IMG/VR virus record: IMGVR_UViG_3300033153_010090
DNA from: an uncultured virus (IMG/VR IMGVR_UViG_3300033153_010090)
Lineage: Duplodnaviria; Heunggongvirae; Uroviricota; Caudoviricetes
Length of the DNA: 64,000 nucleotides
Reading direction: 5' to 3' (one strand)
Made by a program: the position numbers and the translations under genes. The notes below the pieces were generated by a model, which did not search any database, was not told the origin of the DNA, and was given only the letters and a program-made list of their open reading frames with translations. This document shows, piece by piece, positions 1-63,761 of the stretch (positions are counted from its first letter, which is position 1; every line of letters begins with the position of its first letter).

Positions 1-158
1 GTCACGAGGTTGGGCTTGACCTCACGCCAGACCCGCTCTCCAGTCCTGACATCGTAGGCCGCGACGTCGAACTCGCCCGTCCGCGGCTGCAAGCTGAATA
101 GCGGCCTGCCCTCTGCCCTGTGGATCTCCAAGACCTCGTCGATGGAGAGATTACGCAT
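1..158 (-). CDS. Partial virion/tail-region protein (runs off window)
   Basis: ATG at 158 overlaps the stop of the upstream gene; reads MRNLSIDEVLEIHRAEGRP...EVKPNLVT. Confidence 0.6.
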   Translation of the reverse strand, partial: MRNLSIDEVLEIHRAEGRPLFSLQPRTGEFDVAAYDVRTGERVWREVKPNLV

Positions 159-17625: not shown

Positions 17626-18423
17626 CTACTTCCAAGACCAACCAGACTTCATCTTCGCATCCACAGAATCGAAGCCCACCTTGTAGAGCCGTTCGATCAT
17701 GGCCGCGTCCAGCTTGAAAAAGTCGAGCCCAGAGATGGGCGACTCGATGGTGACAATCTTGGCACTCTTCCACACAGCGGTCCGGATGTGCTGCCGCTCC
17801 GCGGCCATCATGAAAGCCGAGACGATGTTGATGTTGAAGGAACCCCACCACTTCCAGGGCTTCATCTCACTGCCAGCGCCCAGCACGCGAATCCCCACTG
17901 CAGGCCCGGCTGGGCGGTCGATGGCAAAGTTGTTGGACACCCCTCCATCCGTCAACCGCTTCCCGTCCATCCGCACGACCGGGAAGATGTCAGGCATGGA
18001 AATAGAAGCCTGCACCGCCTTGGGCAAGGACACCTTGGGGGTATCCTTCGATGAGAAATAGACGGGCTTCCCGGTGTCGGAGTCGGTGGCCACGATGGTC
18101 AAAGGGATCGTAGTCTCGCAGAAAGTGGGCGCGACGTTGTCCTTCAGGTACTTCTGCAGCCGGTCGATGTTAAAGACACCAGGCTCGAACAGGAACTTCC
18201 GGCTGGGGCGGATGAGCTTGTCAGGGGTGATTTTCTTGGCGAGCTCTTTGGCTTGCTGAGGGGTCTTGCCAGAAGCGAAGTACGCACCCATCAGAGCGCT
18301 ACCAGATGTCCCAGTCCAGCTCCCGACTTCCATCCCGTCGGTGAGGAGCCGATGGAGGGCTCCGGCTACAACGATGTAGTTGGCCCCGGTGCCACTTCCG
18401 ACAACGTCCTTCTTGATGCTCAT
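17626..18423 (-). CDS. Patatin-like phospholipase
   Basis: Gly-rich loop GSGTG, nucleophile GTSGS, IVATD, ASISMP..FP, LTDGGVSNN. Confidence 0.9.
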   Translation of the reverse strand: MSIKKDVVGSGTGANYIVVAGALHRLLTDGMEVGSWTGTSGSALMGAYFASGKTPQQAKELAKKITPDKLIRPSRKFLFEPGVFNIDRLQKYLKDNVAPTFCETTIPLTIVATDSDTGKPVYFSSKDTPKVSLPKAVQASISMPDIFPVVRMDGKRLTDGGVSNNFAIDRPAGPAVGIRVLGAGSEMKPWKWWGSFNINIVSAFMMAAERQHIRTAVWKSAKIVTIESPISGLDFFKLDAAMIERLYKVGFDSVDAKMKSGWSWK

Positions 18424-24207: not shown

Positions 24208-24432
24208 CTACCCAGTCAGGAAGTCATTGATCTCATCGGCCGTCGCTAGCACAGCCTCGTTGAGATTCAGGACCTTAGGGTCGCTCACCCCTCTCCCCTT
24301 CAAGACAGCCTGCATGAACTTGTTCTCGTTATCTAGCCGCTCTTTCTCCTTGCCTACCCACTCCTGTACCTTGGCCTTCAACTCGTCCAAGTTGGCGTCA
24401 CGCTGTGCTGTATCTGGCGGGGCCTTTGCCAT
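24208..24432 (-). CDS. Hypothetical helical protein
   Basis: 74 aa, coupled to the sigma factor gene. Confidence 0.65.
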   Translation of the reverse strand: MAKAPPDTAQRDANLDELKAKVQEWVGKEKERLDNENKFMQAVLKGRGVSDPKVLNLNEAVLATADEINDFLTG

Positions 24433-25166
24433 CAGAAGTCCATCACCCGGTTGAAGATGTCAGTTCGAATACGGGTCACCTTCGACGGGCTAATCTTCAT
24501 CTTCTTGGCGATCTGACCGGGCTTCAGTTCAGGCTTGCCCCCATCACCGATAGTGTATTCGTAGACGAGCTTCTGCTCCGGGTTCAACTCGTGCTTCACC
24601 AACCGAAGACGCTCCATCTCAATAGACGGAGTGATGGTCGTAGGGTCACCCTCGTAGGAGGACTCAATGTGGGCCTTGCGAATCTCAGACCCCATCCGAC
24701 CAACCTCTCGAGGTGACCAGCTAAGGTACTCTGCCATCTCCTGCTGAGTAGGCTCACGACCGAACCGGTCGTCCAACTGAGACTTCGCTGCCTCAAACTG
24801 CCCAATCTTGTAGATGCGGTGCTCACCAATGCGAGCAGGGTTCTGGTAGGTGGCCACCCACCTCTTCCCCTTCTGAATGTTGGTGGTGACCCATGTACCC
24901 AACGCGGCGCCCTTGTTCGGGTCGTAGGTCCGAAAGGCGTTGACAGCCTGCTTCGTGAACTCTGCGTGGATGGAGTTGGGCGGGAGCTCCACATTCCGAG
25001 CGAACTGGTTCGACTGCTTCCGGATCATTCCGCGGAAGTTGCTGAGCAACGGACGTAGATCTCCCGGCTTCTCCCCGCCATGCTTCCACTTGTCCCAAAG
25101 CTGGAGGTCCTGCTCGCGCAGAGTTGGACGGCCTTTGACCGCCTCTTTGATGAGGGCACCGATCAT
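24432..25166 (-). CDS. RNA polymerase sigma-70 family factor (group 3, FliA/SigF-like)
   Basis: Region 2 AFRTYDPNKGAALGTWV; region 3 GREPTQQEMAEYL; region 4 LNPEQKLV...GQIAKKMKISPSKV. Confidence 0.9.
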   Translation of the reverse strand: MIGALIKEAVKGRPTLREQDLQLWDKWKHGGEKPGDLRPLLSNFRGMIRKQSNQFARNVELPPNSIHAEFTKQAVNAFRTYDPNKGAALGTWVTTNIQKGKRWVATYQNPARIGEHRIYKIGQFEAAKSQLDDRFGREPTQQEMAEYLSWSPREVGRMGSEIRKAHIESSYEGDPTTITPSIEMERLRLVKHELNPEQKLVYEYTIGDGGKPELKPGQIAKKMKISPSKVTRIRTDIFNRVMDF

Positions 25167-27364: not shown

Positions 27365-27613
27365 CTATCTCCTGCGCCGTGCCATACGCGCCGCCGCACG
27401 CTGCTGCTTCTCCACCTGGCTGCCGATGGAATAGCGGCGCTTCAGCTTCTTGAGCTGGTCAACACCCAGAAGGGTGCCACCGCCGGCCAACAGCATAGCC
27501 TTGCCAGGGCTTCGGGCGGCGTGCTCGAGCGCTTTGCCTGCGATTCGAGATACCGCACCGGCGGCGATTTTCATCAGTTCATCCGTGAATGCGGAATAGC
27601 TCACCATGATCAC
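27365..27613 (-). CDS. Small basic protein with AFTDELMKIA motif
   Basis: 82 aa, coupled. Confidence 0.65.
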   Translation of the reverse strand: MIMVSYSAFTDELMKIAAGAVSRIAGKALEHAARSPGKAMLLAGGGTLLGVDQLKKLKRRYSIGSQVEKQQRAAARMARRRR

Positions 27614-30600
27614 GATCCTTTCAACCCTCGACTCACGCGAAGCTCAGCCGCGTAGGCTCGAACCCTTTGACGCGACGGACCACGTGGGTCGAAGGCTGCG
27701 GGAATAGGCCCTGCATGCGTCGCCCTGCCCTCAGTCCTACGTTGCGTCGGGAACCCACCAGGACCAAGCAGGCCGTCAAACGCGCCCGGTCCCGGTATTG
27801 GCTCCGCCCCTTCCACAAGTTTTGCCCCTACATTGTAGTCACCGAAGGCACGGCTATGGAAGCCTTCCGTCCCACGGACCGTGACCCCATCCGCCCCGAT
27901 GAAATGATCCTCAGACCCCATGATGTCGATGATGTTGGCCACCGGTCGGCGGGTGTAGGTCTTGATGAACTCATGGATGTCGGCCCGGGCCTCCTGCAGC
28001 CGCATGTAGTGGACACTGAGGGCGTCGATAGCCTGCTCGGTCGTGAGCAGCTTCGCGTCGTCCTCAAGGTTGTACAGCGAGCTCTGGAGCTGAACACCCA
28101 GCTCTGAGGGCAGCTTGGTTCCACTCTCTGTCAACGCGTCCCTAGCAGCGATCCCAAGGCTCACATCCTCTGTGATTGCACCAATGCCCAGGAGCCACTT
28201 GTAGACACGCTCACCAATGTTCTCGGGGGCCCACGCAGTGTCGTACCACCCCGGCAAGAGGACACGCTCGAATGGCATTCGTGAGGGAACAGCGTCGGGG
28301 CCGAGACTCTTGTGGTAGCCATACTCGAACGTCACTGAGCTCGGGAACCAGATGGATGTAGTACCATCGCCGACGGGCACCGCAATAGATTTGGTGATGC
28401 CTGACGTGGGCTCTGATGGCCGAACCAGGCCCATCTTCGCAAGGTCCTCAGGCTCAATCTTGATCTTGCCTAGGCCGATCTTGACGGACTTGATGACGCC
28501 AACGCCCTCCACCACAGTAGCCTTGAATGACTCCTTGACCTCAAAATTGAACCCAGCAACCTCTTCGCTTCCGGGAATCGAATACTCCCCCGCCGGCACC
28601 TCGTAGTACTGCTTGTCCCAAGCATGCCCAGTGTGTGTAACCTCCTTCTTCCCAACAGGTCTGGCGTACAGCTTAACTTCTCTGGCTGACCACCCGCTCT
28701 TCTTGAGTTCCTGTCGAGTCATGAAGGCCGCGTTCTCATCAATCCGAGTCAGGCCTCCAGCCAGAGCTGACAGCAACCTCTGCACCTTCGGCCGCTTCCC
28801 CTTCAAGTAGTCTGGGTCCCCAGAGATGAACTTCTTGACGTCCACCGAGACCTTCTCCACCGAGTCCACAGACTTGAACCACTCGTTGGAGCCAATGTCC
28901 AAGATCCCCAAGAACTCGTCGTCAACGCCACGGTGGGTCCGGCAGTGTGTCATCTGCACCGCGGTGAATCCGCCCTGCTGCGACACCGAGTGGGAGATGT
29001 TGCCGACCTTCCCAAGGAACTGAGTGGGCGTAACGTCTCGCTCGAGGATGGACTCAATGACCGCCCGGGCGGCGGGGGAAGGTGATGCACGGTCGAAGAC
29101 CACAGCAGGAAACCCCAACACCAAGTAGGGGTTGAACATCATGTTCACACTCATCGTCCGAGAAGCCCAGCGATGAATGAAGAACTGAAAGTTGGCCAGC
29201 CGCTGCACGTAGGAAATCGCCTTCGACTTCTCCAGCCTCTTGTTGCCGCTCGCTCCGCCCTGCCGTGCTGCCCACCGGTGCCCCTGCTGAATCCACTCGA
29301 ACTTCGGGATGATCCCAGAGTGCACTTCGTGAGGCAGCAGAACCCGGGAGCCGTATGCCAGTGTCCTGTGTAGCGAATTGCCGCGGACGTCCTTGATGTT
29401 CGGTGCGAAGTAGTGATGCCCAAGCAACTTCGTGAGCCCGCGGGTACCGATGATCCCCATCCCGCCCTTGACGCTGAGGCGCGTGACCTCACGCATGAAG
29501 TTCCGCGAGTAGTTGAACTGTGTGTACTGGTCCGGGAAAATGACGTTGCACTTCGGGGGAGCGACGAAGAACGTTTCGGGCAGCAGCATCTGATTGAACA
29601 GATGTTCACCTTGCTGGCGATCGATGGTCTGGAGCTTCTTCTTCATCAGATCGTCGATGAGATCTTCCAGCTCCTCGATCTGCTCTGTCCCGAAGTTCTC
29701 CACGTCGCTCAATATCTGCTTGATGTCACCCCTCGCTTTGTCCGTTGTACCCTTCGACGTTGTCGCCAGATCATCCGCCTCCTTGAGACTCGAGACGGCG
29801 CTCTCAACTGAGTCCTGCAACAGCCCGAACGCCATTTCAGCGGACGCATCATTCCCACCATGGTCATAGCGCCGGTGCTCTGCTTGCCTCTTCATGGCCA
29901 ACTTCATGTGCCGCCGAGCCTGCTTGAGCTTGACGCGCACAGACTTATCTCGAACGGAAGAACGTCGCACAGGTACCTTGGTCACACCGCCCCAGTAGTA
30001 GAACGCCACAGGATTCGGGTAGATGTCATGAAAGATCCATCGACCCACCTGCTGCACCAAATTTCGGTACGAGACGAGATTGCCGATGGAGGCCATGCCG
30101 TTCTTGAGCCACGTGCGGAACGCCTTGCCTGAGTAGATCCGGAGGGAGGTCTTGTCCTCCCTCACCGCACCAATCATGGCCGTCAGACCGTAGCGCATCT
30201 CCGCCACGGAGAAGAAGTCGTTCACGCCAGCGAGCCCCTCCCGGGATGTAGAGCTGCCACGGCGGCCTGGGCGCAACCCACCAATCGTCTCCAACAGGCT
30301 GATCATCCCGCCCTGGAGCCCACTAATTCCCTCGTAGCCGGGAGTCTGTGGCTTGGACTGAAGGACCTTCGAGACCACCCAGGTGTGACCGCCTGTGATG
30401 TTGTCGAAAAGGCCCTCGCCGGCGCCGACGAAAACGTGGGCCTTGTCCACCAACCCAGAAATAGTGGAGTAGTTCGCGAACCACTGAAAGCAGTTGTCCC
30501 AGTAGCTCGAGAGGTCCATGCACTGCAAGATCAACGATCGGTTGGCCGGCGTCTTGGCAAAGGTTTCTCCGATCACCTCACCGATGTAGAACAGCTTGTA

Positions 30601-30906
30601 CCGCTCGTCGTCGACCACGAACGTGTTGGACTGGGGCTTCTGCGGGTGGTTCTCCAGGCTCTGCAGGTAGGATGTACTGGCCTCGGTGCGCTCGCCCGTG
30701 CCGTACTCCTGGTCCCCCATCAAGGACTCGAGGAAATAGAGGTGGACAAGTGTCCGAGGCTTGAACGTGAGCGCGGCATCAGTGGGCACAATCTGAATCG
30801 AGGCCGTCACCGGCTTGCTCGGCGCAATGTTGATCTGCGACGAGATGACGGGAACCTCGATGCCCTCAAGGAACAGGCGTAGACCGAGTGGGCCAGCTTT
30901 AGGCAT
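27610..30906 (-). CDS. Putative baseplate hub/tail-tip protein
   Basis: 1098 aa; RLFLEGIEVPV N-terminus, FNPYLVLGFP..., GKVGNISHSV; downstream of the tape measure. Confidence 0.6.
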   Translation of the reverse strand: MPKAGPLGLRLFLEGIEVPVISSQINIAPSKPVTASIQIVPTDAALTFKPRTLVHLYFLESLMGDQEYGTGERTEASTSYLQSLENHPQKPQSNTFVVDDERYKLFYIGEVIGETFAKTPANRSLILQCMDLSSYWDNCFQWFANYSTISGLVDKAHVFVGAGEGLFDNITGGHTWVVSKVLQSKPQTPGYEGISGLQGGMISLLETIGGLRPGRRGSSTSREGLAGVNDFFSVAEMRYGLTAMIGAVREDKTSLRIYSGKAFRTWLKNGMASIGNLVSYRNLVQQVGRWIFHDIYPNPVAFYYWGGVTKVPVRRSSVRDKSVRVKLKQARRHMKLAMKRQAEHRRYDHGGNDASAEMAFGLLQDSVESAVSSLKEADDLATTSKGTTDKARGDIKQILSDVENFGTEQIEELEDLIDDLMKKKLQTIDRQQGEHLFNQMLLPETFFVAPPKCNVIFPDQYTQFNYSRNFMREVTRLSVKGGMGIIGTRGLTKLLGHHYFAPNIKDVRGNSLHRTLAYGSRVLLPHEVHSGIIPKFEWIQQGHRWAARQGGASGNKRLEKSKAISYVQRLANFQFFIHRWASRTMSVNMMFNPYLVLGFPAVVFDRASPSPAARAVIESILERDVTPTQFLGKVGNISHSVSQQGGFTAVQMTHCRTHRGVDDEFLGILDIGSNEWFKSVDSVEKVSVDVKKFISGDPDYLKGKRPKVQRLLSALAGGLTRIDENAAFMTRQELKKSGWSAREVKLYARPVGKKEVTHTGHAWDKQYYEVPAGEYSIPGSEEVAGFNFEVKESFKATVVEGVGVIKSVKIGLGKIKIEPEDLAKMGLVRPSEPTSGITKSIAVPVGDGTTSIWFPSSVTFEYGYHKSLGPDAVPSRMPFERVLLPGWYDTAWAPENIGERVYKWLLGIGAITEDVSLGIAARDALTESGTKLPSELGVQLQSSLYNLEDDAKLLTTEQAIDALSVHYMRLQEARADIHEFIKTYTRRPVANIIDIMGSEDHFIGADGVTVRGTEGFHSRAFGDYNVGAKLVEGAEPIPGPGAFDGLLGPGGFPTQRRTEGRATHAGPIPAAFDPRGPSRQRVRAYAAELRVSRGLKGS

Positions 30907-32679
30907 CTACACCACCGGCTCGATGTCAGCGTAGGGGTCGTCAACGCCCCGCACGCTCTTCGTCTGTTCGTCAGGCGCCACAGTCATGTTGCTCTGGTAC
31001 GCCTCGAGAGCTCGAGCTCGGATTGTGGGGTCCTGCACGAACTTGGAGAGTTGCACGGATGGGTAGGCCTCGGCAAGCTCGTCCGGGGAAACGTCCGACC
31101 CAGCTTCGCCCACAACCACGCCGCTATCGACGGGGTCGACGTAGTCTGGCTCATCCCGGTAGGTAGTGGGCTCCACCAACAGCTCTGGGTCAGAGTCACC
31201 ATGGACGTCGCGGAGCACTTCAGAAAGCTCTGGCACAGTCTCCAGAATCTCGGTGTAGTCGGTGTCACCGTAGACCGGCTCCAGGTCCGGGGCATCCGTC
31301 CTATCCTGCCCATACGCCAGCTGCTCCTCGTAGGCAGACCCCATCTCAACCTGGACTTCCTCCCCAGCCTCAATGCGTGCCTCGAAATCGCTAGAGTTGG
31401 TCGAGAAGTTGTTGGTGGCGTGGATACCAACGTGCCGGTTGTCCTGTGTACTGAGACGATCCGAGGCGGTCTTGATGCCGGCGGCGGTCGCGTCCAGCGC
31501 GGCCTGTCGTTCTAGCTGTGCCTGGTTCCCGTGGGCGTCCAGTACCACCGGCATCCGAGCAGCACGACGAGCCATGGCATTCACGATGGAGGCCCCAGTC
31601 ACCCCCACTCCCAGGAGACTGGTCACCCCCGCAGAGGCGTTGGCCGGGATCTGCTCCAGGGTGTTCCAGTTCGAGTGAAGCTGTGACGAGAACATTGAGA
31701 AGCTCTCGTTCGACGCACGGGCGACAGACTCCAACCCCTCCGATACACCGTTCACCTCAGTGAGCACACCACCAATCAGGACGTTCGCTTGCTGCGCGGT
31801 GAAGTTCGTGAGCTTCAGCGCCTTGTCTACGTGGGACAGGGCCTTCGCCTGCCAGTAGCGTGGGCCATAGCGTCTGATGTCGGCAATCAGCTTGAGGAAG
31901 CGATTAACCGTCGTGTCCCCCGCCGATCTCCATGAGGGGATGTTCAACCTACCTGGAGGCGGTTCATATTGCTGGTTGGTCTCACCACCTATTATGTTGG
32001 CGATCCCCTCAAAGTGGGGCGATCCAATGTTGGAGAAGTCATAGTAGTTCGTCACGAACATCGTCAGACTGAAGTTCATCTCATTGGGTCGGTCGGCGCT
32101 CTCAGAGGCCTGTGCCCCAAGCGCGTAACCCTCGAGAACGATGGTGTCCCAGGAGATGTAAGCGCGAGCGTTGAGCTGCACCAGCTTCGTCCCGCGCAAG
32201 TAGTTGTCGTAGTTGAACCAGAACTGACTCCGCCAGTTGAAATCCAAGCTGTTGATGAGGAGGCCGCTGAAGGTGACTGTCCGCGGCTGCTCGCCATAGA
32301 AGAAGATGTAGGGGTCGCCAAACGTGTCGACGATCTGGCTCTTCTCGTTCCGCTGCTCTGTCACCTGGCTCAGGATGAAGTCGCTGTACTCCTCCACCTT
32401 CGGTGCAGCATTGCCTGTCTGCGCCGGCATGGCGTTCTCACCAGCGCGAGAAGGAGACGCGAGAGGAATCGGTAGGCCATTGGCGTCGACGATGCTGATG
32501 GTAGTCGGTCGCTCGCCCTTGAGGTCAATCCCCATGTACGGCCGCCGGGCTGTGTTATTCCCCTTCGCTCCACCGTCGCTACGATTGAACTTCGCGATCC
32601 TCATCTCCATGACCTTACCGAAGCTGTCAGTCTCAATGGTGGTATAGGATTGGGACGGTGGGATGAGTGTGTCGGCCAT
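30907..32679 (-). CDS. Putative tail tube initiator/baseplate protein
   Basis: EQRNEKSQIVDTFG..YIFFYGEQPR...FSGLL tube-like fold; position after the tape measure. Confidence 0.55.
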   Translation of the reverse strand: MADTLIPPSQSYTTIETDSFGKVMEMRIAKFNRSDGGAKGNNTARRPYMGIDLKGERPTTISIVDANGLPIPLASPSRAGENAMPAQTGNAAPKVEEYSDFILSQVTEQRNEKSQIVDTFGDPYIFFYGEQPRTVTFSGLLINSLDFNWRSQFWFNYDNYLRGTKLVQLNARAYISWDTIVLEGYALGAQASESADRPNEMNFSLTMFVTNYYDFSNIGSPHFEGIANIIGGETNQQYEPPPGRLNIPSWRSAGDTTVNRFLKLIADIRRYGPRYWQAKALSHVDKALKLTNFTAQQANVLIGGVLTEVNGVSEGLESVARASNESFSMFSSQLHSNWNTLEQIPANASAGVTSLLGVGVTGASIVNAMARRAARMPVVLDAHGNQAQLERQAALDATAAGIKTASDRLSTQDNRHVGIHATNNFSTNSSDFEARIEAGEEVQVEMGSAYEEQLAYGQDRTDAPDLEPVYGDTDYTEILETVPELSEVLRDVHGDSDPELLVEPTTYRDEPDYVDPVDSGVVVGEAGSDVSPDELAEAYPSVQLSKFVQDPTIRARALEAYQSNMTVAPDEQTKSVRGVDDPYADIEPVV

Positions 32680-32682
32680 CTG

Positions 32683-32904
32683 TTACCCCATCACGTGACG
32701 TGGCTTCACGATGAAGTCCTTGAAGTTCTGACCAATCTCATCACCAGAGTCGTCGCCGGTCACCAAACGGTAGAGCTCTCGCCGTACCATGAAGAGGTAA
32801 ACGTCGTCCACCGACGGACGGTCGTAGAAGGTGATCGTCCGTTTGCCGACCCCCTCTGTGTGGAAGTCGAACTTGACGACTCGGCGGGGTCTTGGGTCAG
32901 CCAT
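32683..32904 (-). CDS. Hypothetical protein
   Basis: 73 aa in operon. Confidence 0.6.
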   Translation of the reverse strand: MADPRPRRVVKFDFHTEGVGKRTITFYDRPSVDDVYLFMVRRELYRLVTGDDSGDEIGQNFKDFIVKPRHVMG

Positions 32905-32906
32905 TG

Positions 32907-35900
32907 CTATCCGTCTCGATCTTCTGGTTGTGACGAGTTCTTCTCCCCCGGATCTTGAGTTTCCAGCTTCGCATCAAGAGCAGGAACCAGTCTCGTCAGT
33001 CTTCCAGCAACCTCTCCGAACTTATCAGCGACGATCTCCTGACGCTCGATGAGCTCACGCATCGTTTTCTGTGGGCCCACATCCTTCGCCATCTTCCCGA
33101 CTATTCCTCGAACCTTCTCGAGCTCTTTCGCGTCGTAGCCGCCTTCCTCCATCTCCGCAACCTGGGCGCGCTCATCGTCAGTCATCGTGGCCCCAATGTC
33201 CATCTGAAGAGCCCCGCCGAGCTTCCCAAGGGCTTTCTTGAAGTCCCTCTTGGAAAGGGGCTTTCCCTTGCGCGCCTGGAGAAGCGACTCACTCATACCC
33301 AAGCCGGCAATCATCCGACCGACGCCACCACCAGAGGCCAGGGCTCCCATGGCCTCCTTGTTCCCTTGAACCTCAACTCCGAGCTCAGCAGCCTTCGCAG
33401 CAGCGAGCTCCTGGTCGTCCACATTGGTCGACTTGTAGAGCTTCAAGACCTCCTTGTACTTCCTGCTCTGGTCCGAGGACAATGACGCAGTGGTGCGCCT
33501 TGTAAAAACCTCTTCCTCCTGCGCGACGGAAGCCCTCTCCTCTATGACCCCCATCGTCACGTCCTGTGCACGCAGGTCCTGCATCTTGCCGACCTTGGTG
33601 TTCAGGTCGTTCATGAACTGGCTGTCTTCCAACCCCTGATGGCTTTTAATGAAGTCGAACATCTTGAGCGCGTCGGGGTCTCCTCTTCGAGCGGCCTCGA
33701 GGAATTTGTTACCCTTAATGTCGTCGGGCTTTCCTTTAGCGACCCATTCTCTCAGGTCTGAACTCCACTTCTGCTTGGTCAACGCGCGCATGATCTCTTT
33801 CTTTTCCAGCGGTTCTTTTTCAGCTCTGCCCATAGCGACCAATGCGCGCGCAGCGATACCTGTTGGCTTATCTCGCTCCTGCACCCGCATAAAGCTCTCA
33901 GCAAGACTTGACACGGTCTCGTCCATATTCTTCTTCAGCTCTTTCCTGGAAGTCGGTATGTTAGAAAGCTCCTTCCGGGCGAACACCTTTGAAGACTCAC
34001 GGAACCCGCTGACGTCCTCCTCACCTGCGGCAACAGCCATCAGCTCCATCATGTCGAGATTCACTTGGCCAGAGCCACCTGCTTTACCCTCCCGGAGAGA
34101 CTCCACCGCCTTACGCACTGCCCCTCCCCCTTGCAAGCGGACGAGGCCCATCATCTGCTTTCTGAACTCCCCGTGAGAAACCTTCCCCTGACTTCGCAAC
34201 ATCATCAGGTTGCGGCCCTCTTCGGAGGATGCCGCAGTGATCATGGCCTTCTTGAGAGTCTCGACATGCTTACCACTATCAGGGCCTCCGCTGTAGCCCA
34301 CGGAGGCCAAAGTGAAGTTCGACCCGGCCAGGCGCTGGGTCCTCTGATAGGCCTCGTTAGTCTCCCCCACCCTCGAAAACGTGCCTTCACCCAAGTCGTA
34401 CTGCCCATCGCCTCCCTTGAACTGCAGGTTCTGTCCCATCCGCTGGAGAGCTTCCTTGCGAGACTGTGCACCCTCAGCCATCCCGCCACGTGCAAAACTC
34501 TCAATCATGCCAGTGCCTGTCTCGAGCCTCGACCCTGCCTTGTCCATATCCGCGGGCTGAACAAGCCCTCTCGTACGAAGAATCTGATTACGCTGTTGGG
34601 GGCTTATGTCGATCCCACCGCTACGGTCTCCACCAATCAGCCCCTGCCACGCTTCGTCGATGGACTCACCTAGATCCTGGGCCATGTCGGCACCGGACTC
34701 GCGTAGAGGCCTCCAAGCCGATTCCCATCGTTGCTTGATGGCATCCTTCGCCCCAGACAGACTTCTATTCATCCGAATGTCGAGCTCGCGCTCGCGCTGG
34801 CTCAGCATGTCCTTCATGCGTTTACGATTGTCCTCTTTAATTTGAGGCAGCTTCTCCATCATCTTCATGGCCATCTCGACATCGCGTTCTGTCGCACCAG
34901 TGATGTGCTTCAGCACTGTGGCCTGAATGTCGTCAGATGAATCAGAATGACCGGACTTATCGAGCACCATCTGCATCATCGCTGCGGAGCCTTCGAGACC
35001 TCCCTTGCCGACGAGCTCCCCCTGCATCTTCTTCTGCTGCATCATGTAAGACGCTGCACCCTCACGAGTCCCGGTCAGCTTGCGCCCTCTCTTCTCGAGC
35101 GCTCCGATGTCCAACTGACCTGCCTTCAGCTTACGCATCATCTCGGGGTCCATCTCTCCCGTGAACTCCCCGTCTTCGAACTGACCCATGCCCGCGACAG
35201 CCAGCTTGCCCATCGGACTCTGGGCCATACGAGCGGTCATACCCATCATGCCCTGGGCAACCATCCGCTGACCCTCTCGGCCGCCCACCCCCCCAGTGAA
35301 CTCAGTGATGTCCTGATTGCTTAGGGCGCCGATGTTCGTCGCGCCTTGGACGTTCATGAACGCCTTCTGCCCTGCCAAAGCACCCGCGCCGAGACGTCCG
35401 CCCATGCCGTGAACCATCTGAGCACCAGCGCCCATTGTGGCACCCAGTTGCTGCGCTCCCTGTGGTCCTGCCATCTTCATGGCGGCCGATCCACCCATGA
35501 TGTCGCCGGCAGTCCACATGCCCATCTGCTGGAACTTCTGCAGCATCGGGGCTGCCTCTTCCATGGACGTGCCCATCATCTTGGCGATGATGTCGGTCTG
35601 CTTGACCATGTTGGAGAACTTTTGCTTGAACGACGAAGCATCGACGCTGCCAGTCAGCATCCCCATCTGGGAGAACTTGTCGGCCAGCTTGGTCACCGTT
35701 TGGACAGAGGCCATGACGTTGTCGTCGGCCAGCTCCTCGATGACGCTCACCATCTGACGAATCTGGCCACGGTCCAGCTTACCGCCCGGGCGAGACCCTG
35801 CGCCGTACTGAGGGCCCGCCATCTGCCCTGACACGCGCTCCATGTCCTGGGTGGTCTGGACACCCTGGTAGAACTGCTGACCAGCCTCCACGGCCGCCAT

Positions 35901-36365
35901 GCCCGCTGCGGCCGCGGGCGCAGCAGCCAAGCCTGCCATGCCTACCCCTGCACCCAGGCGAGCCAACCCAGGGAGAGCCCCACGGCCGAAGCCGGCTCCA
36001 ATCTGCCCCATGGTGGCGCCGAACCCCCCACCGCCAGCGCCCACACCACGGGCAAACCCCCTCGCAGCCCCAGTAAAGGGGTCAGCCCAACCAGCCGCAC
36101 CGCCCATCATCCCGGCTGCGAGAGGAACACCCGCAGCGGCCATGGGTGCCATCATCCCTGCGGCGCCCGCTATTTTCGAGCCTGTGTCCTGTGTCTGGTT
36201 GAACGGATCTCCCCCATAGGAGGGAGGAGCCTGCATAGCCCCGCCGGTGGGCCCAGGGCCCGTCCCGTACAAGCTACCAATCTGCTGAGACATCTGGGAC
36301 TGGTTGCCGAACATGGCAACCTGGCCACCGATCATGCCAGACGTCTGTAAGCTGGAAAGGGGCAT
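32907..36365 (-). CDS. Tail tape measure protein
   Basis: 1152 aa, Gly/Ala/Met-rich and helical, upstream of baseplate genes. Confidence 0.8.
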   Translation of the reverse strand: MPLSSLQTSGMIGGQVAMFGNQSQMSQQIGSLYGTGPGPTGGAMQAPPSYGGDPFNQTQDTGSKIAGAAGMMAPMAAAGVPLAAGMMGGAAGWADPFTGAARGFARGVGAGGGGFGATMGQIGAGFGRGALPGLARLGAGVGMAGLAAAPAAAAGMAAVEAGQQFYQGVQTTQDMERVSGQMAGPQYGAGSRPGGKLDRGQIRQMVSVIEELADDNVMASVQTVTKLADKFSQMGMLTGSVDASSFKQKFSNMVKQTDIIAKMMGTSMEEAAPMLQKFQQMGMWTAGDIMGGSAAMKMAGPQGAQQLGATMGAGAQMVHGMGGRLGAGALAGQKAFMNVQGATNIGALSNQDITEFTGGVGGREGQRMVAQGMMGMTARMAQSPMGKLAVAGMGQFEDGEFTGEMDPEMMRKLKAGQLDIGALEKRGRKLTGTREGAASYMMQQKKMQGELVGKGGLEGSAAMMQMVLDKSGHSDSSDDIQATVLKHITGATERDVEMAMKMMEKLPQIKEDNRKRMKDMLSQRERELDIRMNRSLSGAKDAIKQRWESAWRPLRESGADMAQDLGESIDEAWQGLIGGDRSGGIDISPQQRNQILRTRGLVQPADMDKAGSRLETGTGMIESFARGGMAEGAQSRKEALQRMGQNLQFKGGDGQYDLGEGTFSRVGETNEAYQRTQRLAGSNFTLASVGYSGGPDSGKHVETLKKAMITAASSEEGRNLMMLRSQGKVSHGEFRKQMMGLVRLQGGGAVRKAVESLREGKAGGSGQVNLDMMELMAVAAGEEDVSGFRESSKVFARKELSNIPTSRKELKKNMDETVSSLAESFMRVQERDKPTGIAARALVAMGRAEKEPLEKKEIMRALTKQKWSSDLREWVAKGKPDDIKGNKFLEAARRGDPDALKMFDFIKSHQGLEDSQFMNDLNTKVGKMQDLRAQDVTMGVIEERASVAQEEEVFTRRTTASLSSDQSRKYKEVLKLYKSTNVDDQELAAAKAAELGVEVQGNKEAMGALASGGGVGRMIAGLGMSESLLQARKGKPLSKRDFKKALGKLGGALQMDIGATMTDDERAQVAEMEEGGYDAKELEKVRGIVGKMAKDVGPQKTMRELIERQEIVADKFGEVAGRLTRLVPALDAKLETQDPGEKNSSQPEDRDG

Positions 36366-36414: not shown

Positions 36415-36425
36415 TTTGGAATAAG
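36415..36425 (+). promoter_or_regulatory. Phage promoter motif YGGHATAAG
   Basis: TTTGGAATAAG, one of 12 plus-strand copies. Confidence 0.7.
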
Positions 36426-36515: not shown

Positions 36516-36772
36516 CCAGGAAGGCCAGAGGGCTTCGCCACTGCGTCCACTCGGCCACGCAGCTTCTGATAGATGTACCCGACGATGGCTTTATGCTCCC
36601 AGGACGCCAGACCGTCGGCCCAAAGGACATCAATCTCGGCCCCGCCCGTTCGAAGGTACGCGTCGAAAAGGTCCGCTTCTTTACGGCATAAGTCACGTAA
36701 AGGAGGCCCACCTTCGCCGACAAGCTGTTGGATCTTTGGGTCATCGATCGTCATCTTTATCTGGGACATCAC
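36512..36772 (-). CDS. Hypothetical protein
   Basis: 86 aa ORF filling the gap. Confidence 0.55.
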   Translation of the reverse strand: MMSQIKMTIDDPKIQQLVGEGGPPLRDLCRKEADLFDAYLRTGGAEIDVLWADGLASWEHKAIVGYIYQKLRGRVDAVAKPSGLPG

Positions 36773-36817
36773 CCATACATACGCCGGCGCTCAGTTGGTG
36801 TCAAACGAGGAGAAACC

Positions 36818-38173
36818 ATGAAGTTTCGAGAGTTCAGGCAGGAGAAGGGGAGAACGGCCAAACCCCAGGTCTGGCAGATTGGCCAGGATGGAAACCAAGT
36901 CAACGTGATGTGGGGGCAACTCGACGGCAAGATGCAGAGCACGGTGCAGCGGTTCGAGGCTGTGAACGCCGGAAAGAAGAATGAGAAACCCCCCAAACAG
37001 GTCGCACAAGAATTCCTGGAGAAGGAGGTCCTCAAGCGTCTGCGGCGTGGGTACAAGGAGGTCGACTCGGCCGGTGAATACCTGACGGCTGACGAGATGA
37101 AGGTCGGTGACGAGACCATCAAGCATGGTGACGAGATCGACTTCGTGCGCCTGCCCAACAACCTGCGGTTCTACAAGCCGCAGAACACCATGAACAAGCA
37201 CATGGAGAAGATGGCAGCAGCTGGCAACGCCATGTACCTCCGCAAGCGGGATGGCAACATGTTCGTCGTCTCCGTGGACGAGTGGGGGAACCCGAGGCTC
37301 TACAGCTCCACCCTCTCACCGACCCCCAAGGGTGAGCAGGCGCCCTGGCTGGACCGGTTCCCTCATCTCGAGGTAGCACTGGCTGGCAAGATCCCACCGA
37401 AGAGCATCCTGCTCTGCGAGATGGTAGCGAGCGAGTGCAATGACGACCTGGACTATGTTGGTCAGGTCCTCCGCTCGCTCACAGCCAAGGCCATTGAGTT
37501 CCAGGACGCGAACCACGGCCTGTGGCTCTGTGTCTGGGACGTCGCGTTCCTGGGTGGGCAGCAGCTCATCGGGAACCTCTCCATCATGCACCGGCTCACC
37601 CAGGCTGAGGACCTGGCCGCCGGCATCGAGTACATGACCACACCGGACACCCTCCTCACCGGGCAGGTCCACAACCCAGAGAACGACTGCTTCGACGGGA
37701 GCACGGAGGAAGCCATCATGTCGGCCAAGGAGTGGGGCTACGAGGGATGGGTGGTGGTCGACCCTGACGCCACCTATGGGGATCGCGGCATCTCCTTCCA
37801 CGGTAAGGCCGAGCGGCCCAAGGAGTGCTGCAAGCTCAAGCCGCTGTACGAGGCTGACTTCATCCTTAGGTGGGACCCGGACAACAAGATCGGCACCAGG
37901 GGAAAGGGGAAGAAGTCCATCGGTGTCGGCTCCTTCTTTGCCTACCTGATGTCGGAGACCGGCGAGGAGATGTACATCTCCAAGGTGGGTGGGGGGCTCA
38001 CTGACGAGGACGTGAAGAAGTATGCCCAGCCAGGCCTCTGCATCGTCGGTCAGGTCGAGTTCGCCTCGATCACCGCCGAGGGGTCGCTGCAGTTCCCCCG
38101 GTTCGTCCGAGAGCGCACCTACAAGGCGCCAGGCTCCTGCACCTACGACCAGCTCAACAACATCCCGAGGTAG
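36818..38173 (+). CDS. ATP-dependent DNA ligase with N-terminal WGR-like domain
   Basis: VMWGQLDG (WGR-like); motif I KRDGN, EGWVV, CKLKP, KVGGG, SLQFPRF; GAGGAG RBS. Confidence 0.9.
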   Translation: MKFREFRQEKGRTAKPQVWQIGQDGNQVNVMWGQLDGKMQSTVQRFEAVNAGKKNEKPPKQVAQEFLEKEVLKRLRRGYKEVDSAGEYLTADEMKVGDETIKHGDEIDFVRLPNNLRFYKPQNTMNKHMEKMAAAGNAMYLRKRDGNMFVVSVDEWGNPRLYSSTLSPTPKGEQAPWLDRFPHLEVALAGKIPPKSILLCEMVASECNDDLDYVGQVLRSLTAKAIEFQDANHGLWLCVWDVAFLGGQQLIGNLSIMHRLTQAEDLAAGIEYMTTPDTLLTGQVHNPENDCFDGSTEEAIMSAKEWGYEGWVVVDPDATYGDRGISFHGKAERPKECCKLKPLYEADFILRWDPDNKIGTRGKGKKSIGVGSFFAYLMSETGEEMYISKVGGGLTDEDVKKYAQPGLCIVGQVEFASITAEGSLQFPRFVRERTYKAPGSCTYDQLNNIPR

Positions 38174-50428: not shown

Positions 50429-51361
50429 TCACCCCAGGAGTACATCCTGAAGTGATGAAAGAAGGCCGGGGGTCGAGCCTAGTGCCGCGGCCGCCTCCTT
50501 CTCCCCATGCCCCAGTTCCTCTCCATTGAGATAGTAGCGGGATCCAGCCTGCTCAATGTAGCCACGCTCAAGAGCAACACGCAGTGTGTCGAGGGAGACC
50601 TGCACGCCGTAACCCTTCCTGACCGGGAGCTGCACCAGTACAGCAGGCTTCGACAGCACGTTGGCCTCAATGTTCACCACCATGGTGTAGGTGTCCCGGG
50701 AGACCTGGTCCCTCCCGACCTCGAGCCTGACGTTGAACAGGTCCGTGAACCGCCTGGCCGCCGTCTCAGTACCCCGCGTGAGCACCTTCCCGGGTCGAAT
50801 TGACCTACGAGCTCGCGACTGGTTCGTGACCACCACCACCGAGCTCGATGAACAGACAGATGAAAGAAGGGAGAGGAAATGGAAGACCTCCTCGTTCCAG
50901 TTCTCATAGCTCTCATCTGCCGGGCGTAGCGCTGTCAACGAGTCAACCGCGAGTAAGCGGAAGTCCGAACAAAGAAAGTCCCGGGCCAATGGCTGCACGC
51001 TACCGATGCTCCCCCTGATGATGGCCAGCAGCTTCGGGTCTACCCCCAGATCTTCAAGGTAGGGGATGTCTAGGTACTCGGTGGGACAAAGTGCCGTTGC
51101 GAATTGCCTGCGCTGTGCTGCGCCGATGAGGTACCCCAGCAGGGCTGTCTTCCCTGTCGACTCGTCGCCGTGAAGCTCAACGATACCTGACGCCAACCCT
51201 CCCCCAAGTGCCATGTCCAAGCTGAGGATGCCTGTCCGGAGTGCGGGCCGAGGGAGCTCCTGCTCCTCATACGAAATATCCAAGATGTGGCTCAGCGCCC
51301 GACTGGCGCGTGCATTCCGTCGTGCGAACTGGTCACCAGCCCGCTTCAGTTCTTCGTCCAT
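50429..51361 (-). CDS. recA: Divergent RecA-like ATPase/recombinase
   Basis: TGILSLDMALGGGL, GIVELHG, Walker A GDESTGKT, Walker B LLAVDSL, VVTNQ, C-terminal IEQAGSRY..NGEELGHG. Confidence 0.85.
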   Translation of the reverse strand: MDEELKRAGDQFARRNARASRALSHILDISYEEQELPRPALRTGILSLDMALGGGLASGIVELHGDESTGKTALLGYLIGAAQRRQFATALCPTEYLDIPYLEDLGVDPKLLAIIRGSIGSVQPLARDFLCSDFRLLAVDSLTALRPADESYENWNEEVFHFLSLLSSVCSSSSVVVVTNQSRARRSIRPGKVLTRGTETAARRFTDLFNVRLEVGRDQVSRDTYTMVVNIEANVLSKPAVLVQLPVRKGYGVQVSLDTLRVALERGYIEQAGSRYYLNGEELGHGEKEAAAALGSTPGLLSSLQDVLLG

Positions 51362-56947: not shown

Positions 56948-56958
56948 TTTGGTATAAG
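56948..56958 (+). promoter_or_regulatory. Phage promoter motif YGGHATAAG
   Basis: TTTGGTATAAG. Confidence 0.75.
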
Positions 56959-59713: not shown

Positions 59714-59745
59714 GGGATGGGGGCTTCGGCCCCTGTTCCTTAGCC
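59714..59745 (+). terminator. Hairpin + TTAGCC terminator
   Basis: GGGATGGGGGC-TTCG-GCCCCTGTTCC-TTAGCC. Confidence 0.75.
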
Positions 59746-59762
59746 TGAATTGAGGTGTACGT

Positions 59763-59773
59763 TTTGGAATAAG
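59763..59773 (+). promoter_or_regulatory. Phage promoter motif YGGHATAAG
   Basis: TTTGGAATAAG. Confidence 0.75.
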
Positions 59774-59809
59774 AAGGGTAGTAGGAATCAACTTTGCCAA
59801 GGAGGCCAC

Positions 59810-60181
59810 ATGAGCAAACTGACAATATGGGCACAGGTCCTCGTGAGAGGCTTGTGGAAGAGGATGGAGTTCCCTGAGCTTGAGCGCGGAGACCTCTTCC
59901 GCCTCTACGACGAGGAAGGCAAGCCCGTCGACGGTGGGGAGGTCCATGTCGCGGATGCGGAGCCGTTCGAGCGGGAGTCGCTCTGGGCTGTGAAGTCACA
60001 CCTCGCCGGCCGTGGCGAGCCGGTGCGATACGTGGATGTAGGCTCGTGCAGCTACTGTGTCATGAACAGCGACAGTGCCTGCAGAGCTGTGAGCAGACAG
60101 TGCCCGCCAGATGGTGTGACGCCGGACTGGTGTCCTCTTCGTGAGGGGCCGGTCTTTATCAGCTGGGTCGGTAGTGATTGA
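59810..60181 (+). CDS. Hypothetical protein with C-terminal Cys cluster (PDWCPL)
   Basis: AGGAGGCC RBS. Confidence 0.7.
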   Translation: MSKLTIWAQVLVRGLWKRMEFPELERGDLFRLYDEEGKPVDGGEVHVADAEPFERESLWAVKSHLAGRGEPVRYVDVGSCSYCVMNSDSACRAVSRQCPPDGVTPDWCPLREGPVFISWVGSD

Positions 60182-60207
60182 CTCACAGAGGCTGGAAGGA
60201 GGCCATC

Positions 60208-61815
60208 ATGATCGAATTCGATACGAAAGCGTTCAACGCTGCGATGGAGAAGCTCGACAAGGAGCTTCCCGACGAGCTACCTGAGGTCAAGCGGTTCCAC
60301 GCTGCGGCTCTGGTCGTCGGTGGGGACATGAAGGGAGACAACTTCTGGATCGTGATGGCTGTGACCTTGCTCGGTGTTAACGAAGGCTGGGAGTGGCCGT
60401 ACCTGCTCGAGCACACCGTGAAGATTCTCCCCATCTATGTCAAGGGGTCCGGGTCGAATAAGAACCGCGGGATGCGCTTCACTGAGTTCTGGATCGATAC
60501 CAACTGGGACTTCAGTTACCCCATCAGCATCTTCGCTGAGGTCTTCAGGCCCATCGCCATCGCACACAAGAAGTGCTGGTCTCTCCCGGCCACTGTCGAA
60601 CGCGCCAAGGAGATCTGGGAGCAGGAGTACGCCTCGTGGGAGAAGGCTCTCCACACGCGTGTGAACAAGAATGGTGACCGGTTTGTCGATCGCACCTACC
60701 ACATGATGAAAGAGATGGGTTCGACGAAGAAGCACGTCATGAAGGGCAGAGCTATTGGGAAGAGCACCGCCATGCAGTGCCCAGTTTGCAAGCAGACGAA
60801 GGATCTTGACCCCACCAATCCGTGGCACCTTGGAAAGTCCATGTGTTGCCCGGACTGCAAGCCATTCATGGCTGGTCCGCGTGGCATCAGGTCTGATGTT
60901 CCGCACATGGACCCGGCAGACGATCTCCGCCCCGCAGTGAACGCCATGGTGCAGGGCCAGGAAGTCGACAGGATGATAGCGGCAGGCGTTGATCCGGCCA
61001 CACCAAACTCAGAGGTGACCGCAATGATCGCCTACCAGACGAAGGGGCCCTACGCCTCACACCTGGACTTCGTGCACATGCGCGAGCACCTGCAGCAGAA
61101 GATATTTGCTGCGCTACACGTACCAGCAGAAATGCTTGGTGTGGTGGGTAGTGAACCTGAGAAGGTGAGCGTCGCTGAGTCCTTGGAGAAGACCAAGGAC
61201 ATCCCCATCTTCTCAACGATGACTGGGCGCATGCAGTGCAAGGAGCCGAACATCAGCAACCTCCCCAGGAGTGAGAAGATGGATGACGGACAACGAGCAT
61301 CAGACCAGATCCTCATCTGCGAAGGGCAGGAGTTCCTCGTTGACGGTGACTGCGTCATAGTGTGGGACCGAAACGGCTTCAGGAAGAAGCAGGGCAGTCA
61401 GTTCGTCCATGGAAAGTTCGTCCAGGACGACACCCACGATGGCCACATGTTCCTTCGCAGAGGCAGCCCTGTGAGGCTGATCGACTCCGATGGCAAAGAG
61501 ATCGGCCGGGCCGTCATCCGCGGTGATGGGGAGCTCGACGTTCTCGAGGAGGCCCTCGACATCAAGCTGGGGAAGAGCTTCTGGGCCGTGGTCGGCATTG
61601 ACCGAGATGACCCCTCTGTCTGCCACGGAAAGGTGATGGCCTTCTACTACAAGTACCACGAGGACTCAGCTTACACTCACAACGTCATTCACCTGCGCCT
61701 GGATAATGGCCATGTCGCCCACTGCTCCGACAAGGAGCTCTTCAGGACACAGGAGAAGGCTGAAGCGCAGAGGATGAAGCTCCTGGAAGGGAGCAATGAT
61801 GACGGCACCGATTGA
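60208..61815 (+). CDS. Mosaic protein with terminase-, portal- and PolA-like short motifs
   Basis: 535 aa; KGRAIGKST, DFVHMREHLQQKIFAALHVPAEMLG, TMTGRMQCKEPNISNLPR. Confidence 0.75.
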   Translation: MIEFDTKAFNAAMEKLDKELPDELPEVKRFHAAALVVGGDMKGDNFWIVMAVTLLGVNEGWEWPYLLEHTVKILPIYVKGSGSNKNRGMRFTEFWIDTNWDFSYPISIFAEVFRPIAIAHKKCWSLPATVERAKEIWEQEYASWEKALHTRVNKNGDRFVDRTYHMMKEMGSTKKHVMKGRAIGKSTAMQCPVCKQTKDLDPTNPWHLGKSMCCPDCKPFMAGPRGIRSDVPHMDPADDLRPAVNAMVQGQEVDRMIAAGVDPATPNSEVTAMIAYQTKGPYASHLDFVHMREHLQQKIFAALHVPAEMLGVVGSEPEKVSVAESLEKTKDIPIFSTMTGRMQCKEPNISNLPRSEKMDDGQRASDQILICEGQEFLVDGDCVIVWDRNGFRKKQGSQFVHGKFVQDDTHDGHMFLRRGSPVRLIDSDGKEIGRAVIRGDGELDVLEEALDIKLGKSFWAVVGIDRDDPSVCHGKVMAFYYKYHEDSAYTHNVIHLRLDNGHVAHCSDKELFRTQEKAEAQRMKLLEGSNDDGTD

Positions 61816-62248
61816 CGACTTCCGTGGTGAGTACAAGTGGCTCTCTAACTTCTGGCGAGAGCCATTCCGACACTGCGAGAAGATCTGGCCCAGCTCAGAG
61901 CACGCCTTCCAGGCAATGAAGACCCTGGACCCTGAGATGCAAGAGGAGATTCGCACTGCAGTATCTCCTCGAGAAGCCAAGCGCTTGGGCAGCCCTAGAA
62001 ACACCCGGTTGGTTCTCCGTCCAGGATGGGACGCCGTGCGTATTGACGTGATGCGACATATCCTGCGGGCCAAATTCAGGTCGGCCCGGCTCGCCAAGAT
62101 GCTCCTGGACACTGGCGATGCCGAGCTCGTCGAGGGCAACACATGGAAGGATGACTTCTGGGGCGTGTACAACGGGAAGGGAGAGAACTGGTTGGGTCGC
62201 CTCCTCATGGAGATCAGAGAGGAGATCAGAGATGTGTCAAACAACTGA
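61796..62248 (+). CDS. NADAR (YbiA-like) family protein
   Basis: FRGEYKWLSNF, SEHAFQAMK, AKRLG, AKF, LLDTGDAELVEGN...DDFWG...GENWLGRLLMEIR. Confidence 0.92.
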   Translation: MMTAPIDDFRGEYKWLSNFWREPFRHCEKIWPSSEHAFQAMKTLDPEMQEEIRTAVSPREAKRLGSPRNTRLVLRPGWDAVRIDVMRHILRAKFRSARLAKMLLDTGDAELVEGNTWKDDFWGVYNGKGENWLGRLLMEIREEIRDVSNN

Positions 62249-62666
62249 GCCAGAGCGCTATCCACCGTTCGAGTGGAACCTCAATCGCATGAAGAGCGGG
62301 GCATACAATGGTTGCGTCTACAGTTCTGTGTGCAGCCTCGAGGCCAACCAGCTACTGAGTATTACCGCGCACAAAGTGGTGCAGATGCTCATCCCAGCGC
62401 TCGACACTCAGCCGACAAGAGCGCACATAGCGATGTCTCTCCAGGGAGCGTTCTCCAACCTCGTGGCCTCGGGTGTGCTCTTCAAGCTCGGCTCCCAGTA
62501 CATCGTGGACATCAAGGCCTTGCTCGACATGATGTTGAGTGAGGATGTGGAACCTGTGTCCAAGGGGCCCTGCCACACCTGTGGGGGGAACGGTTACCTC
62601 TCCGGCTATGGTCACGGCAGAGAAGACTGCCCTGACTGCGACGGTACTGGCGACGAGACTCCCTGA
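62232..62666 (+). CDS. Protein with sheath-like helix and DnaJ-type zinc finger
   Basis: CHTCGGNG...CPDCDGTG; AGGAG RBS. Confidence 0.7.
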   Translation: MCQTTEPERYPPFEWNLNRMKSGAYNGCVYSSVCSLEANQLLSITAHKVVQMLIPALDTQPTRAHIAMSLQGAFSNLVASGVLFKLGSQYIVDIKALLDMMLSEDVEPVSKGPCHTCGGNGYLSGYGHGREDCPDCDGTGDETP

Positions 62667-63332: not shown

Positions 63333-63761
63333 ATGACGAAGAGACTCATTCTGATGGTAGGGTTCCCGCGCAGCGGGAAGAGCACGAGGGCCCGTGGGCT
63401 TAGTCACCAACTCGGTGCACCCATCGTCAACCCGGACAGCATCCACAAGGTGGTGCACGGCACAGCCTACCGTGACGAGGCGAACCCCATCGTCTGGGGC
63501 GTCGCCAAGACCATGGTCCGCGCTCTCTTCGAGGCTGGGCACGACGTGGTCATCGTCGACGCGTGCAACAACACCAAGCAGCGGAGGCAGGAGTGGAAAG
63601 ACTGGTCTGGGGAGATCTGGGAGCGAGACTACGTCGAGTGCGGCACCTCTGCGGAGGAGTGCCTCAAGCGTCTGGACGACTCCAACCAGCAGCTCACCAA
63701 GATCATTTGGCGGATGGCTCGACAGCACGAGTCCGTGAACCAGAAGGAGGAGACTCCATGA
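63333..63761 (+). CDS. P-loop kinase (AAA_33 / polynucleotide-kinase-like)
   Basis: LILMVGFPRSGKST, IVNPD, VIVDACN....R, ECLKR. Confidence 0.85.
   Translation: MTKRLILMVGFPRSGKSTRARGLSHQLGAPIVNPDSIHKVVHGTAYRDEANPIVWGVAKTMVRALFEAGHDVVIVDACNNTKQRRQEWKDWSGEIWERDYVECGTSAEECLKRLDDSNQQLTKIIWRMARQHESVNQKEETP

Follow-up and report, generated by a model that had tools for sequence, protein, structure and literature searches.

The closest published parallel that we found for the protein described here is provided by the ankyrin-repeat open reading frames (ORFs) of Bodo saltans virus (Deeg et al. 2018, eLife, PMC5871332). These ORFs join a constant binding-type domain to short fragments of core replication genes, DNA polymerase included, and vary rapidly, and a decoy role was proposed for them, and not tested, by the authors. 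A comparable organisation is found in P0001, a protein of 535 amino acids (aa) plus stop encoded on the plus strand at 60208-61815 of a 64,000-nucleotide stretch from an uncultured virus of the Caudoviricetes (IMG/VR record IMGVR_UViG_3300033153_010090; the whole of this 64-kb stretch is referred to below as the window), and in its homologues, P0002-P0007. The two cases nevertheless differ in several respects. Bodo saltans virus is a giant virus of a eukaryote, and its ORFs have an ankyrin scaffold, many tandem paralogues, and fragments of family-B polymerase or MutS, whereas P0001 belongs to a tailed phage, is the product of a single gene, possesses a C-terminal Tudor/SH3-like barrel, and carries fragments of 20-65 aa. 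We found no phage counterpart of the Bodo saltans virus ORFs in the literature at the level of titles and abstracts.

A second point of comparison comes from bacterial proteins that sense phage components. In the account of Lee et al. 2026 (PMC13581612), the phage proteins recognised by Avs families are terminase, portal, family-A polymerase, and RecA-type helicase ATPases; for EcAvs19 the core polymerase domain is both necessary and sufficient; and Lit and CapRel, which read short capsid-protein motifs, are contrasted with Avs. The original prediction for this locus was that P0001 is a single protein in which short, fold-less look-alikes of terminase, portal and family-A polymerase are strung together as a decoy for Avs sensors. 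All three peptides concerned are exact translations of the DNA at the positions claimed for them (60733-60768, 61066-61140 and 61213-61269). As for the look-alikes themselves, the outcome is a modest but real oddity: that of polymerase holds and is firm, that of portal is weak and marginal, and that of terminase fails.

On the basis of sequence comparison, P0001 most likely belongs to a family of modular phage proteins with an accessory role that is both very rare and fast-evolving, and in which the variable part is predicted to consist of swappable and mostly disordered cassettes. We observe in it a modular architecture, a fragment of a polymerase, cassettes that turn over among relatives, and none of the folds from which its look-alikes would derive. 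The protein begins with an N-terminal module (aa 1-159; 60208-60684, this and all following segments lying on the plus strand), of which aa 1-15 are present in P0002 and P0003 and aa 16-159 in P0002 only. It is followed by a cassette (aa 160-262; 60685-60993) comprising a P-loop-like MKGRAIGKST and then a CPVC...CPDC zinc ribbon, which is 81% identical in P0003 and missing from P0002 after GKST. A further cassette (aa 263-336; 60994-61215), which holds the portal-like helix, is found in P0001 only, and in neither P0002 nor P0003; it is modelled at a predicted local distance difference test score (pLDDT) below 50, with a predicted helix at aa 286-302. Beyond the polymerase-like fragment lies a beta-hairpin unit (aa 366-400; 61303-61407) held in common with P0002, with strands modelled at low confidence at aa 375-395, and the protein ends in a conserved C-terminal domain (aa 401-535; 61408-61812) made up of a beta unit, the Tudor/SH3-like barrel (aa 447-520) and a helix (aa 515-531).

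The family-A DNA-polymerase-like fragment, STMTGRMQCKEPNISNLPRSEKMDDGQRAS (61213-61302, +; about 30 aa, aa 336-365), extends beyond the peptide of the original prediction, which covered 61213-61269. When the whole, unselected P0001 was compared with Pfam, DNA_pol_A was its best match (E value 0.038, 13.4 bits), with aa 336-358 aligned to profile positions 115-137 of 381, and the homologue P0002 matches identical positions of this profile (E 0.069). With P0001 divided into 25 tiles of 40 aa, the polymerase-like piece matched DNA_pol_A at E 0.011 and a DNA polymerase I PHROG at E 0.034. A tblastn search of GenBank phages with a 41-aa piece returned 427 records (best E 0.02), and among the 25 matches listed 23 lie inside genes annotated as DNA polymerase, the other 2 being in records without annotation. 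The piece corresponds to aa 426-441 of T7 gp5, and 14/30 of its residues are identical in the polymerase of Vibrio phage H256D1, in an alignment that extends past the invariant core. The claim of a polymerase A motif is therefore borne out by Pfam, PHROGs, tblastn and direct identity, and we regard the likeness as firm, though modest: a real but modest sequence homology to the family-A TGR...PN(L/I)xN(L/I)P segment. P0001 is not, however, a polymerase. Compared with family-A polymerases (PF00476), it keeps the T, TGR, PN, N, P and R positions, but has only some 23-30 of the 381 profile positions (13-16 bits), with none matched elsewhere in the protein; the gathering score of 34.3 bits is not reached (13.4-15.8 bits), and the palm and fingers motifs are not covered.

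For the portal-like peptide DFVHMREHLQQKIFAALHVPAEMLG (61066-61140, +), which lies within the cassette unique to P0001, support at the sequence level is marginal. The sole Pfam match of its tile is Phage_portal (E 0.036-0.037, profile positions 213-242 of 321), and two portal PHROGs (9232 and 2662) match the same tile at E 0.026 and 0.097. The gathering score of Phage_portal (PF04860), 39.1, is not reached, the match amounting to 13.6-13.7 bits over about 30 of 321 positions. A tblastn search with this piece returned 3 phage records, 0 of them within a portal gene, and shuffle tests against the portals of T7, T4 and HK97 gave p values of 0.08, 0.24 and 0.54. What remains of the portal claim is thus a likeness at the level of profiles, but one whose E values are also reached by control tiles, and which neither tblastn nor shuffling supports. 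We also considered the portal-like helix as a feature common to P0004 and P0005, and set this aside as not clear: P0004 gives a 26-residue alignment (E 0.013) in another register, and P0005 gives none.

No terminase match was found for the peptide HVMKGRAIGKST (60733-60768, +), which had been taken for a terminase Walker A motif. Terminase families were absent from the Pfam matches (E≤10) and PHROG matches (E≤1-10) of the whole of P0001, of a 51-aa piece, and of the 40-aa tiles, and zinc-finger families are the sole matches of tiles from aa 160-262. A tblastn search with the piece returned 23 records, with 0/23 rows in a terminase-annotated feature. Shuffle p values against the large terminases (TerL) of T7, T4 and HK97 were 0.036, 0.085 and 0.82, and the best TerL score (that of T7 gp19) ranked 2 of 50 references, below an unrelated protein. 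In P0003, the P-loop IGKS is replaced by LKKN inside the block that is 81% identical. With no terminase signal in Pfam, PHROGs or tblastn, we do not retain the terminase claim. Other candidates that had been picked out by eye received no support from any tool and were dropped: a Walker-B-like RGMRFTEFWIDT and a terminase-like 'EIWEQEY' in the N-terminal module, and, as a terminase motif, 'FRxEY', which is rather a family-internal leader ahead of the C-terminal domain in most members. Two jumbo phages give weak tblastn matches to the P-loop and portal pieces, which fall within small hypothetical proteins, and phrog_207 (head maturation protease) was not detected in either of these two records.

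An exhaustive search of 1.84 billion representatives yielded a family of 7 proteins, P0001 included, to which word-indexed searches added 0, such that 7 is the total among some 15 billion proteins. The only part common to all members is the C-terminal domain, of some 130 residues with 15 invariant columns, and they otherwise differ by entire cassettes. P0002 (480 aa) aligns with P0001 at aa 1-187 (48% identity) and again at aa 337-532 (58%), homology ending at GKST and restarting at TxTGR, and the middle of P0002 is a different cassette. P0003 (263 aa, 79-81% identical) corresponds to P0001 minus aa 16-159 and aa 263-400. The look-alike theme extends to other relatives, in the form of DnaB-like and head-protease-like pieces. 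In an unselected scan of the whole protein, P0006 matches 65 aa of DnaB_C (E 3.9e-4) as well as phrog_19 (E 3.1e-4), and phrog_207 is matched by P0004 (E 0.0016) and P0002 (E 0.014). The protease likeness is limited to about 41 columns, at aa 48-92 of T4 gp21 (hhalign E 0.091), and we rejected the idea that the short members are, as a whole, degenerate gp21-type proteases, given that hhalign covers these 41 columns only and no Pfam protease family is matched. Pieces naming a core phage family are therefore present in 4/7 members and in none of P0003, P0005 and P0007. In-frame fragments of core genes are fused in this family to a constant, non-parent domain and vary among relatives, as is expected of core-gene-fragment fusions, with each piece being of modest significance.

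Some further features of the family were noted, partly by eye. A motif N-x-N-G-[DR]-x-[FYL]-[PVT] occurs near the N-terminal part of P0001, P0002, P0004, P0005 and P0006 (5/7 members, and twice in P0002), and the N-x-N-G-[DR] region is the one that aligns to T4 gp21 aa 48-92. P0002 apparently has a second copy of the leader and beta unit preceding the barrel. Searches for further relatives were unproductive: the whole of P0001 has no match among GenBank phages (tblastn, blastn), whole P0002, P0004 and P0006 gave nothing at E≤1 against phages by tblastn, and the DNA of the relatives was not found in viral, metagenome or genome contig collections. A family member is absent from 5 IMG/VR records with distant relatives of the window's structural genes, 4/5 of which are incomplete, such that this is not evidence of absence.

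The parent folds of terminase, portal and polymerase are missing from P0001, as had been claimed, by Pfam, PDB sequences and AlphaFold2 alike, and neither AlphaFold2 nor Pfam gave any sign that the protein folds as one coherent known enzyme. An AlphaFold2 model built from the 7-sequence alignment has a mean pLDDT of 45 and is confident for aa 1-40 and aa 450-531 only, with aa 147-444, which include all three peptides, at pLDDT below 50; the ESM Atlas model of P0001 is equally poor (pLDDT 0.38). The modelled C-terminal aa 447-520 superpose on Tudor domains, best on 6hq9_B (Z 7.2, root mean square deviation 2.4 Å, 58 residues), and many unrelated barrels follow at Z 5.3-6.7, at sequence identities of 5-18%. 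These Z values do not reach what the tool states as indicating a specific match, and refolding the C-terminal domain from a single sequence gave a poor model (pLDDT 54). The likeness to Tudor, chromo-barrel, KOW and SH3-like small beta-barrels is that of a generic fold class and implies no function. Foldseek against viral models returned small uncharacterised barrel proteins only, P0001 has no PDB sequence match, and a two-sequence profile compared with the PDB gave malectin noise only.

A potential explanation for these likenesses is that they arise by chance throughout, and that P0001 is an ordinary ORFan accessory protein in which neither common descent nor mimicry is involved. All of the scores are under family thresholds and the shuffle tests are non-significant, as would be expected under such an explanation, and in 44 control tiles cut from six neighbouring ORFs matches at E≤0.1 are not rare: Pfam is matched at this level by 7/44 control tiles and by 6/25 tiles of P0001, and PHROGs by 5/44 and 7/25, respectively. 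However, the control matches to core phage families number 0 in either library, whereas portal and polymerase families are named by 2/25 P0001 tiles in both, and ten large ORFs of unknown function showed no core-family match at E≤1. Chance is also poorly compatible with a polymerase piece that is found in 427 phage records, with 23 of the 25 listed in polymerase genes, and whose match exceeds the invariant core at 14/30 identical residues, or with the DnaB_C match of P0006, which came from a scan in which no piece had been selected. We therefore consider chance resemblance throughout to be unlikely. Judged against shuffled controls, the three peptides fail when compared with single reference proteins, and it is the polymerase piece alone that passes at the level of profiles and databases.

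If the pieces are not fortuitous, their presence could be explained by the capture of short segments of core genes into a tolerant linker by illegitimate recombination. The constant barrel domain might then serve as a handle, and the captured pieces as linear-motif look-alikes, competing for whatever contacts those conserved segments, candidate targets being DNA, a partner protein, or a sensor with which the host reads short motifs. We place the probability that the captured pieces function as linear mimics at about 0.4. The argument for such a role comes from the pattern of conservation between P0001 and P0002, in which 15/19 residues of the polymerase 19-mer are identical, compared with a mean of 10.8 over 19-residue windows, and the four differences avoid the consensus T, TGR, PN, N, P and R positions.

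Several observations weigh against functional mimicry. The family is small, at 7 members. P0003, despite being 79% identical, has neither the polymerase nor the portal piece, and its P-loop is lost, such that these pieces are dispensable to the family. The conservation of the polymerase piece is not exceptional, with 13.8% of 19-residue windows conserved as well as or better than it between P0001 and P0002, and its shuffle test against T7 gp5 gave p 0.052. Every fragment match is, at the sequence level, individually weak and far under Pfam cut-offs, and E values of 0.01-0.1 are ordinary for tiles, since those of the control tiles go down to 0.0012 (Pfam). Single-protein shuffle tests against T4, T7 and HK97 were at noise level for all three pieces, as was the whole family in Smith-Waterman comparisons with shuffles against 50 proteins of these phages, in which unrelated proteins scored equal to the expected parents. 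Within the window, we could recognise no gene for a polymerase, portal, terminase or major capsid protein. Finally, there is a detection bias, in that a fragment is recognisable only where its family bears strong motifs, and the apparent enrichment of core motifs may be an artefact of this.

Many of the same points would be accounted for if the pieces were evolutionary debris, that is, randomly captured fragments whose likeness, brought to light by detection bias alone, is a relic without a role, with function residing in the C-terminal barrel and the N-terminal module. The state of P0003, the wholly replaced middle cassette of P0002, the marginal fragment scores with similar E values in control tiles and single-sequence shuffles at noise, and a polymerase piece whose conservation lies merely within the top 14% of windows are all consistent with this explanation. 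It is more difficult to reconcile with debris that what P0001 and P0002 both preserve are the consensus residues of the polymerase motif as given in the original prediction, that core-family pieces recur in 4/7 members, and that such matches occur in 0/44 control tiles and 0/10 large ORFs of unknown function. On balance, we view the debris explanation as possible, and only somewhat less probable than functional mimicry.

The position of the cassette borders raises another alternative, under which it is the codons of the motifs, not the peptides, that matter, acting as patches of homology for cassette exchange, for gene conversion with core genes, or for repair following the action of a homing endonuclease. 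Homology between P0001 and P0002 breaks precisely at the motif edges, the window encodes a UvsX/RecA-like recombinase (50429-51361, -), and homing elements are stated in PMC5871332 to usually target conserved motifs of essential genes. Yet the 8 kb surrounding the gene has no DNA-level match to any GenBank phage (blastn), the cassette borders have no notable or informative repeats, paralogues of any piece are absent from the 555 six-frame ORFs of the window, so that no second copy exists there, and every piece is in frame and in sense. A role at the DNA level consequently seems highly improbable.

The genomic setting of the P0001 gene is as originally claimed, behind a recurring motif at 59763 and immediately upstream of a NADAR gene. 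The start ATG of P0001 is preceded by a ribosome-binding site, GGAAGGAGG, at 60194-60202. The operon is headed by a putative promoter-like motif (59723-59779, +), consisting of AGC.TGA, 17-18 nucleotides, and then TTTGGAATAAGAAGGGT. This motif, the second half of which may also be written TTTGGAATAAGAAGRGT, recurs at 36415, 56948, 58424 and 59763 (+), with TTTGGAATAAG exact at 59763 and 36415 and carrying 1 mismatch at 56948 and 58424, and the four sites are alignable across some 50 nucleotides. Two of the sites, 58424 and 59763, are succeeded within about 20-50 nucleotides by a gene start that has the ribosome-binding site CCAAGGAGGCCA. A sigma-70 scan missed this motif; a sigma-70-like protein is encoded in the window at 24432-25166 (-). 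The first gene after the motif (59810-60181, +; ATG at 59810 behind AAGGAGG) encodes 123 aa with a Cys-rich C-terminus and has no family match in Pfam or PHROGs, and P0001 is the second gene downstream of the motif at 59763.

The start of the NADAR gene (61796-62248, +; Pfam NADAR E 9e-29, phrog_1017 E 2e-43) overlaps the end of the P0001 ORF by 20 nucleotides. Downstream of it, an ORF ending at 62666 (+) encodes a zinc finger of the CxxCxGxG type at its C-terminus, and 63333-63761 (+) is occupied by a polynucleotide-kinase-like AAA_33 gene. Together with a DNA ligase gene (36728-38173), the NADAR gene, zinc-finger ORF and kinase-like gene look like a nucleic-acid repair or counter-defence set.

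It is in this setting that the decoy role of the original prediction has to be judged, namely that P0001, produced early, serves as a decoy or sponge with several epitopes, which engages the Avs/STAND sensors of terminase, portal and polymerase but leaves them untriggered. The presence of NADAR and the polynucleotide-kinase-like gene gives the operon a counter-defence flavour, and the Avs triggers listed in PMC13581612 overlap with the parents of the pieces in the P0001 family. However, as described in the same source, Avs sensors bind whole core folds through extensive shape-complementary interfaces, and P0001 has no such core fold (no domain-level profile match, and aa 147-444 at pLDDT below 50). 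Furthermore, support is lacking for the terminase piece and marginal for the portal piece, and P0003 is without the pieces. Because the published Avs sensors need whole core folds, we disfavour an Avs decoy and judge it very unlikely. The Lit protease and CapRel represent, by analogy, the type of sensor against which a linear copy of a peptide might in principle be a competitor; their known triggers are motifs of the major capsid protein, and no capsid piece was found in P0001. We found no phage decoy against Lit or CapRel in the published literature at title and abstract level.

More generally, the window comes from a tailed phage that is large and very divergent. The minus strand carries a tail/baseplate block with Laminin_G_3 fibre proteins, a baseplate wedge, a patatin-like protein and the sigma-70-like factor, and the plus strand carries, from about 36.7 kb, the DNA ligase gene with accessory genes after it. 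Two adjoining large proteins encoded at 158-4743 (-) have Laminin_G_3/ConA-like domains (E 1e-8 and 1e-40) and are probably tail fibre or receptor-binding proteins, and the patatin-like phospholipase gene (17626-18423, -; E 4e-24) lies within the tail/baseplate block. Three very large neighbouring ORFs at 27610-36365 (-), of 1098, 590 and 1152 aa, have no Pfam match at E≤0.001; two of them match non-significant PHROGs of unknown function only (E≤1) and one matches none.

Returning to functional mimicry, one more specific form of it can be proposed, in which the family as a whole consists of a constant barrel bearing exchangeable linear copies of polymerase, portal, helicase and head protease segments, which would act early as competitive ligands and would thereby dampen any sensor of the host, or factor of a rival phage or satellite, by which those segments are read. 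Although we consider this specific form rather unlikely, it would, if true, by analogy represent a phage counterpart of the decoy idea put forward for Bodo saltans virus. Should the pieces be functional, they would point to a new principle of phage counter-defence or interference, based on peptide-level mimicry by a phage of its own most conserved segments, and would provide a handle on host or rival factors that read short motifs instead of whole folds. Should they be relics only, the family would show how accessory genes can be assembled by in-frame capture and the rapid swapping of fragments around a constant domain.

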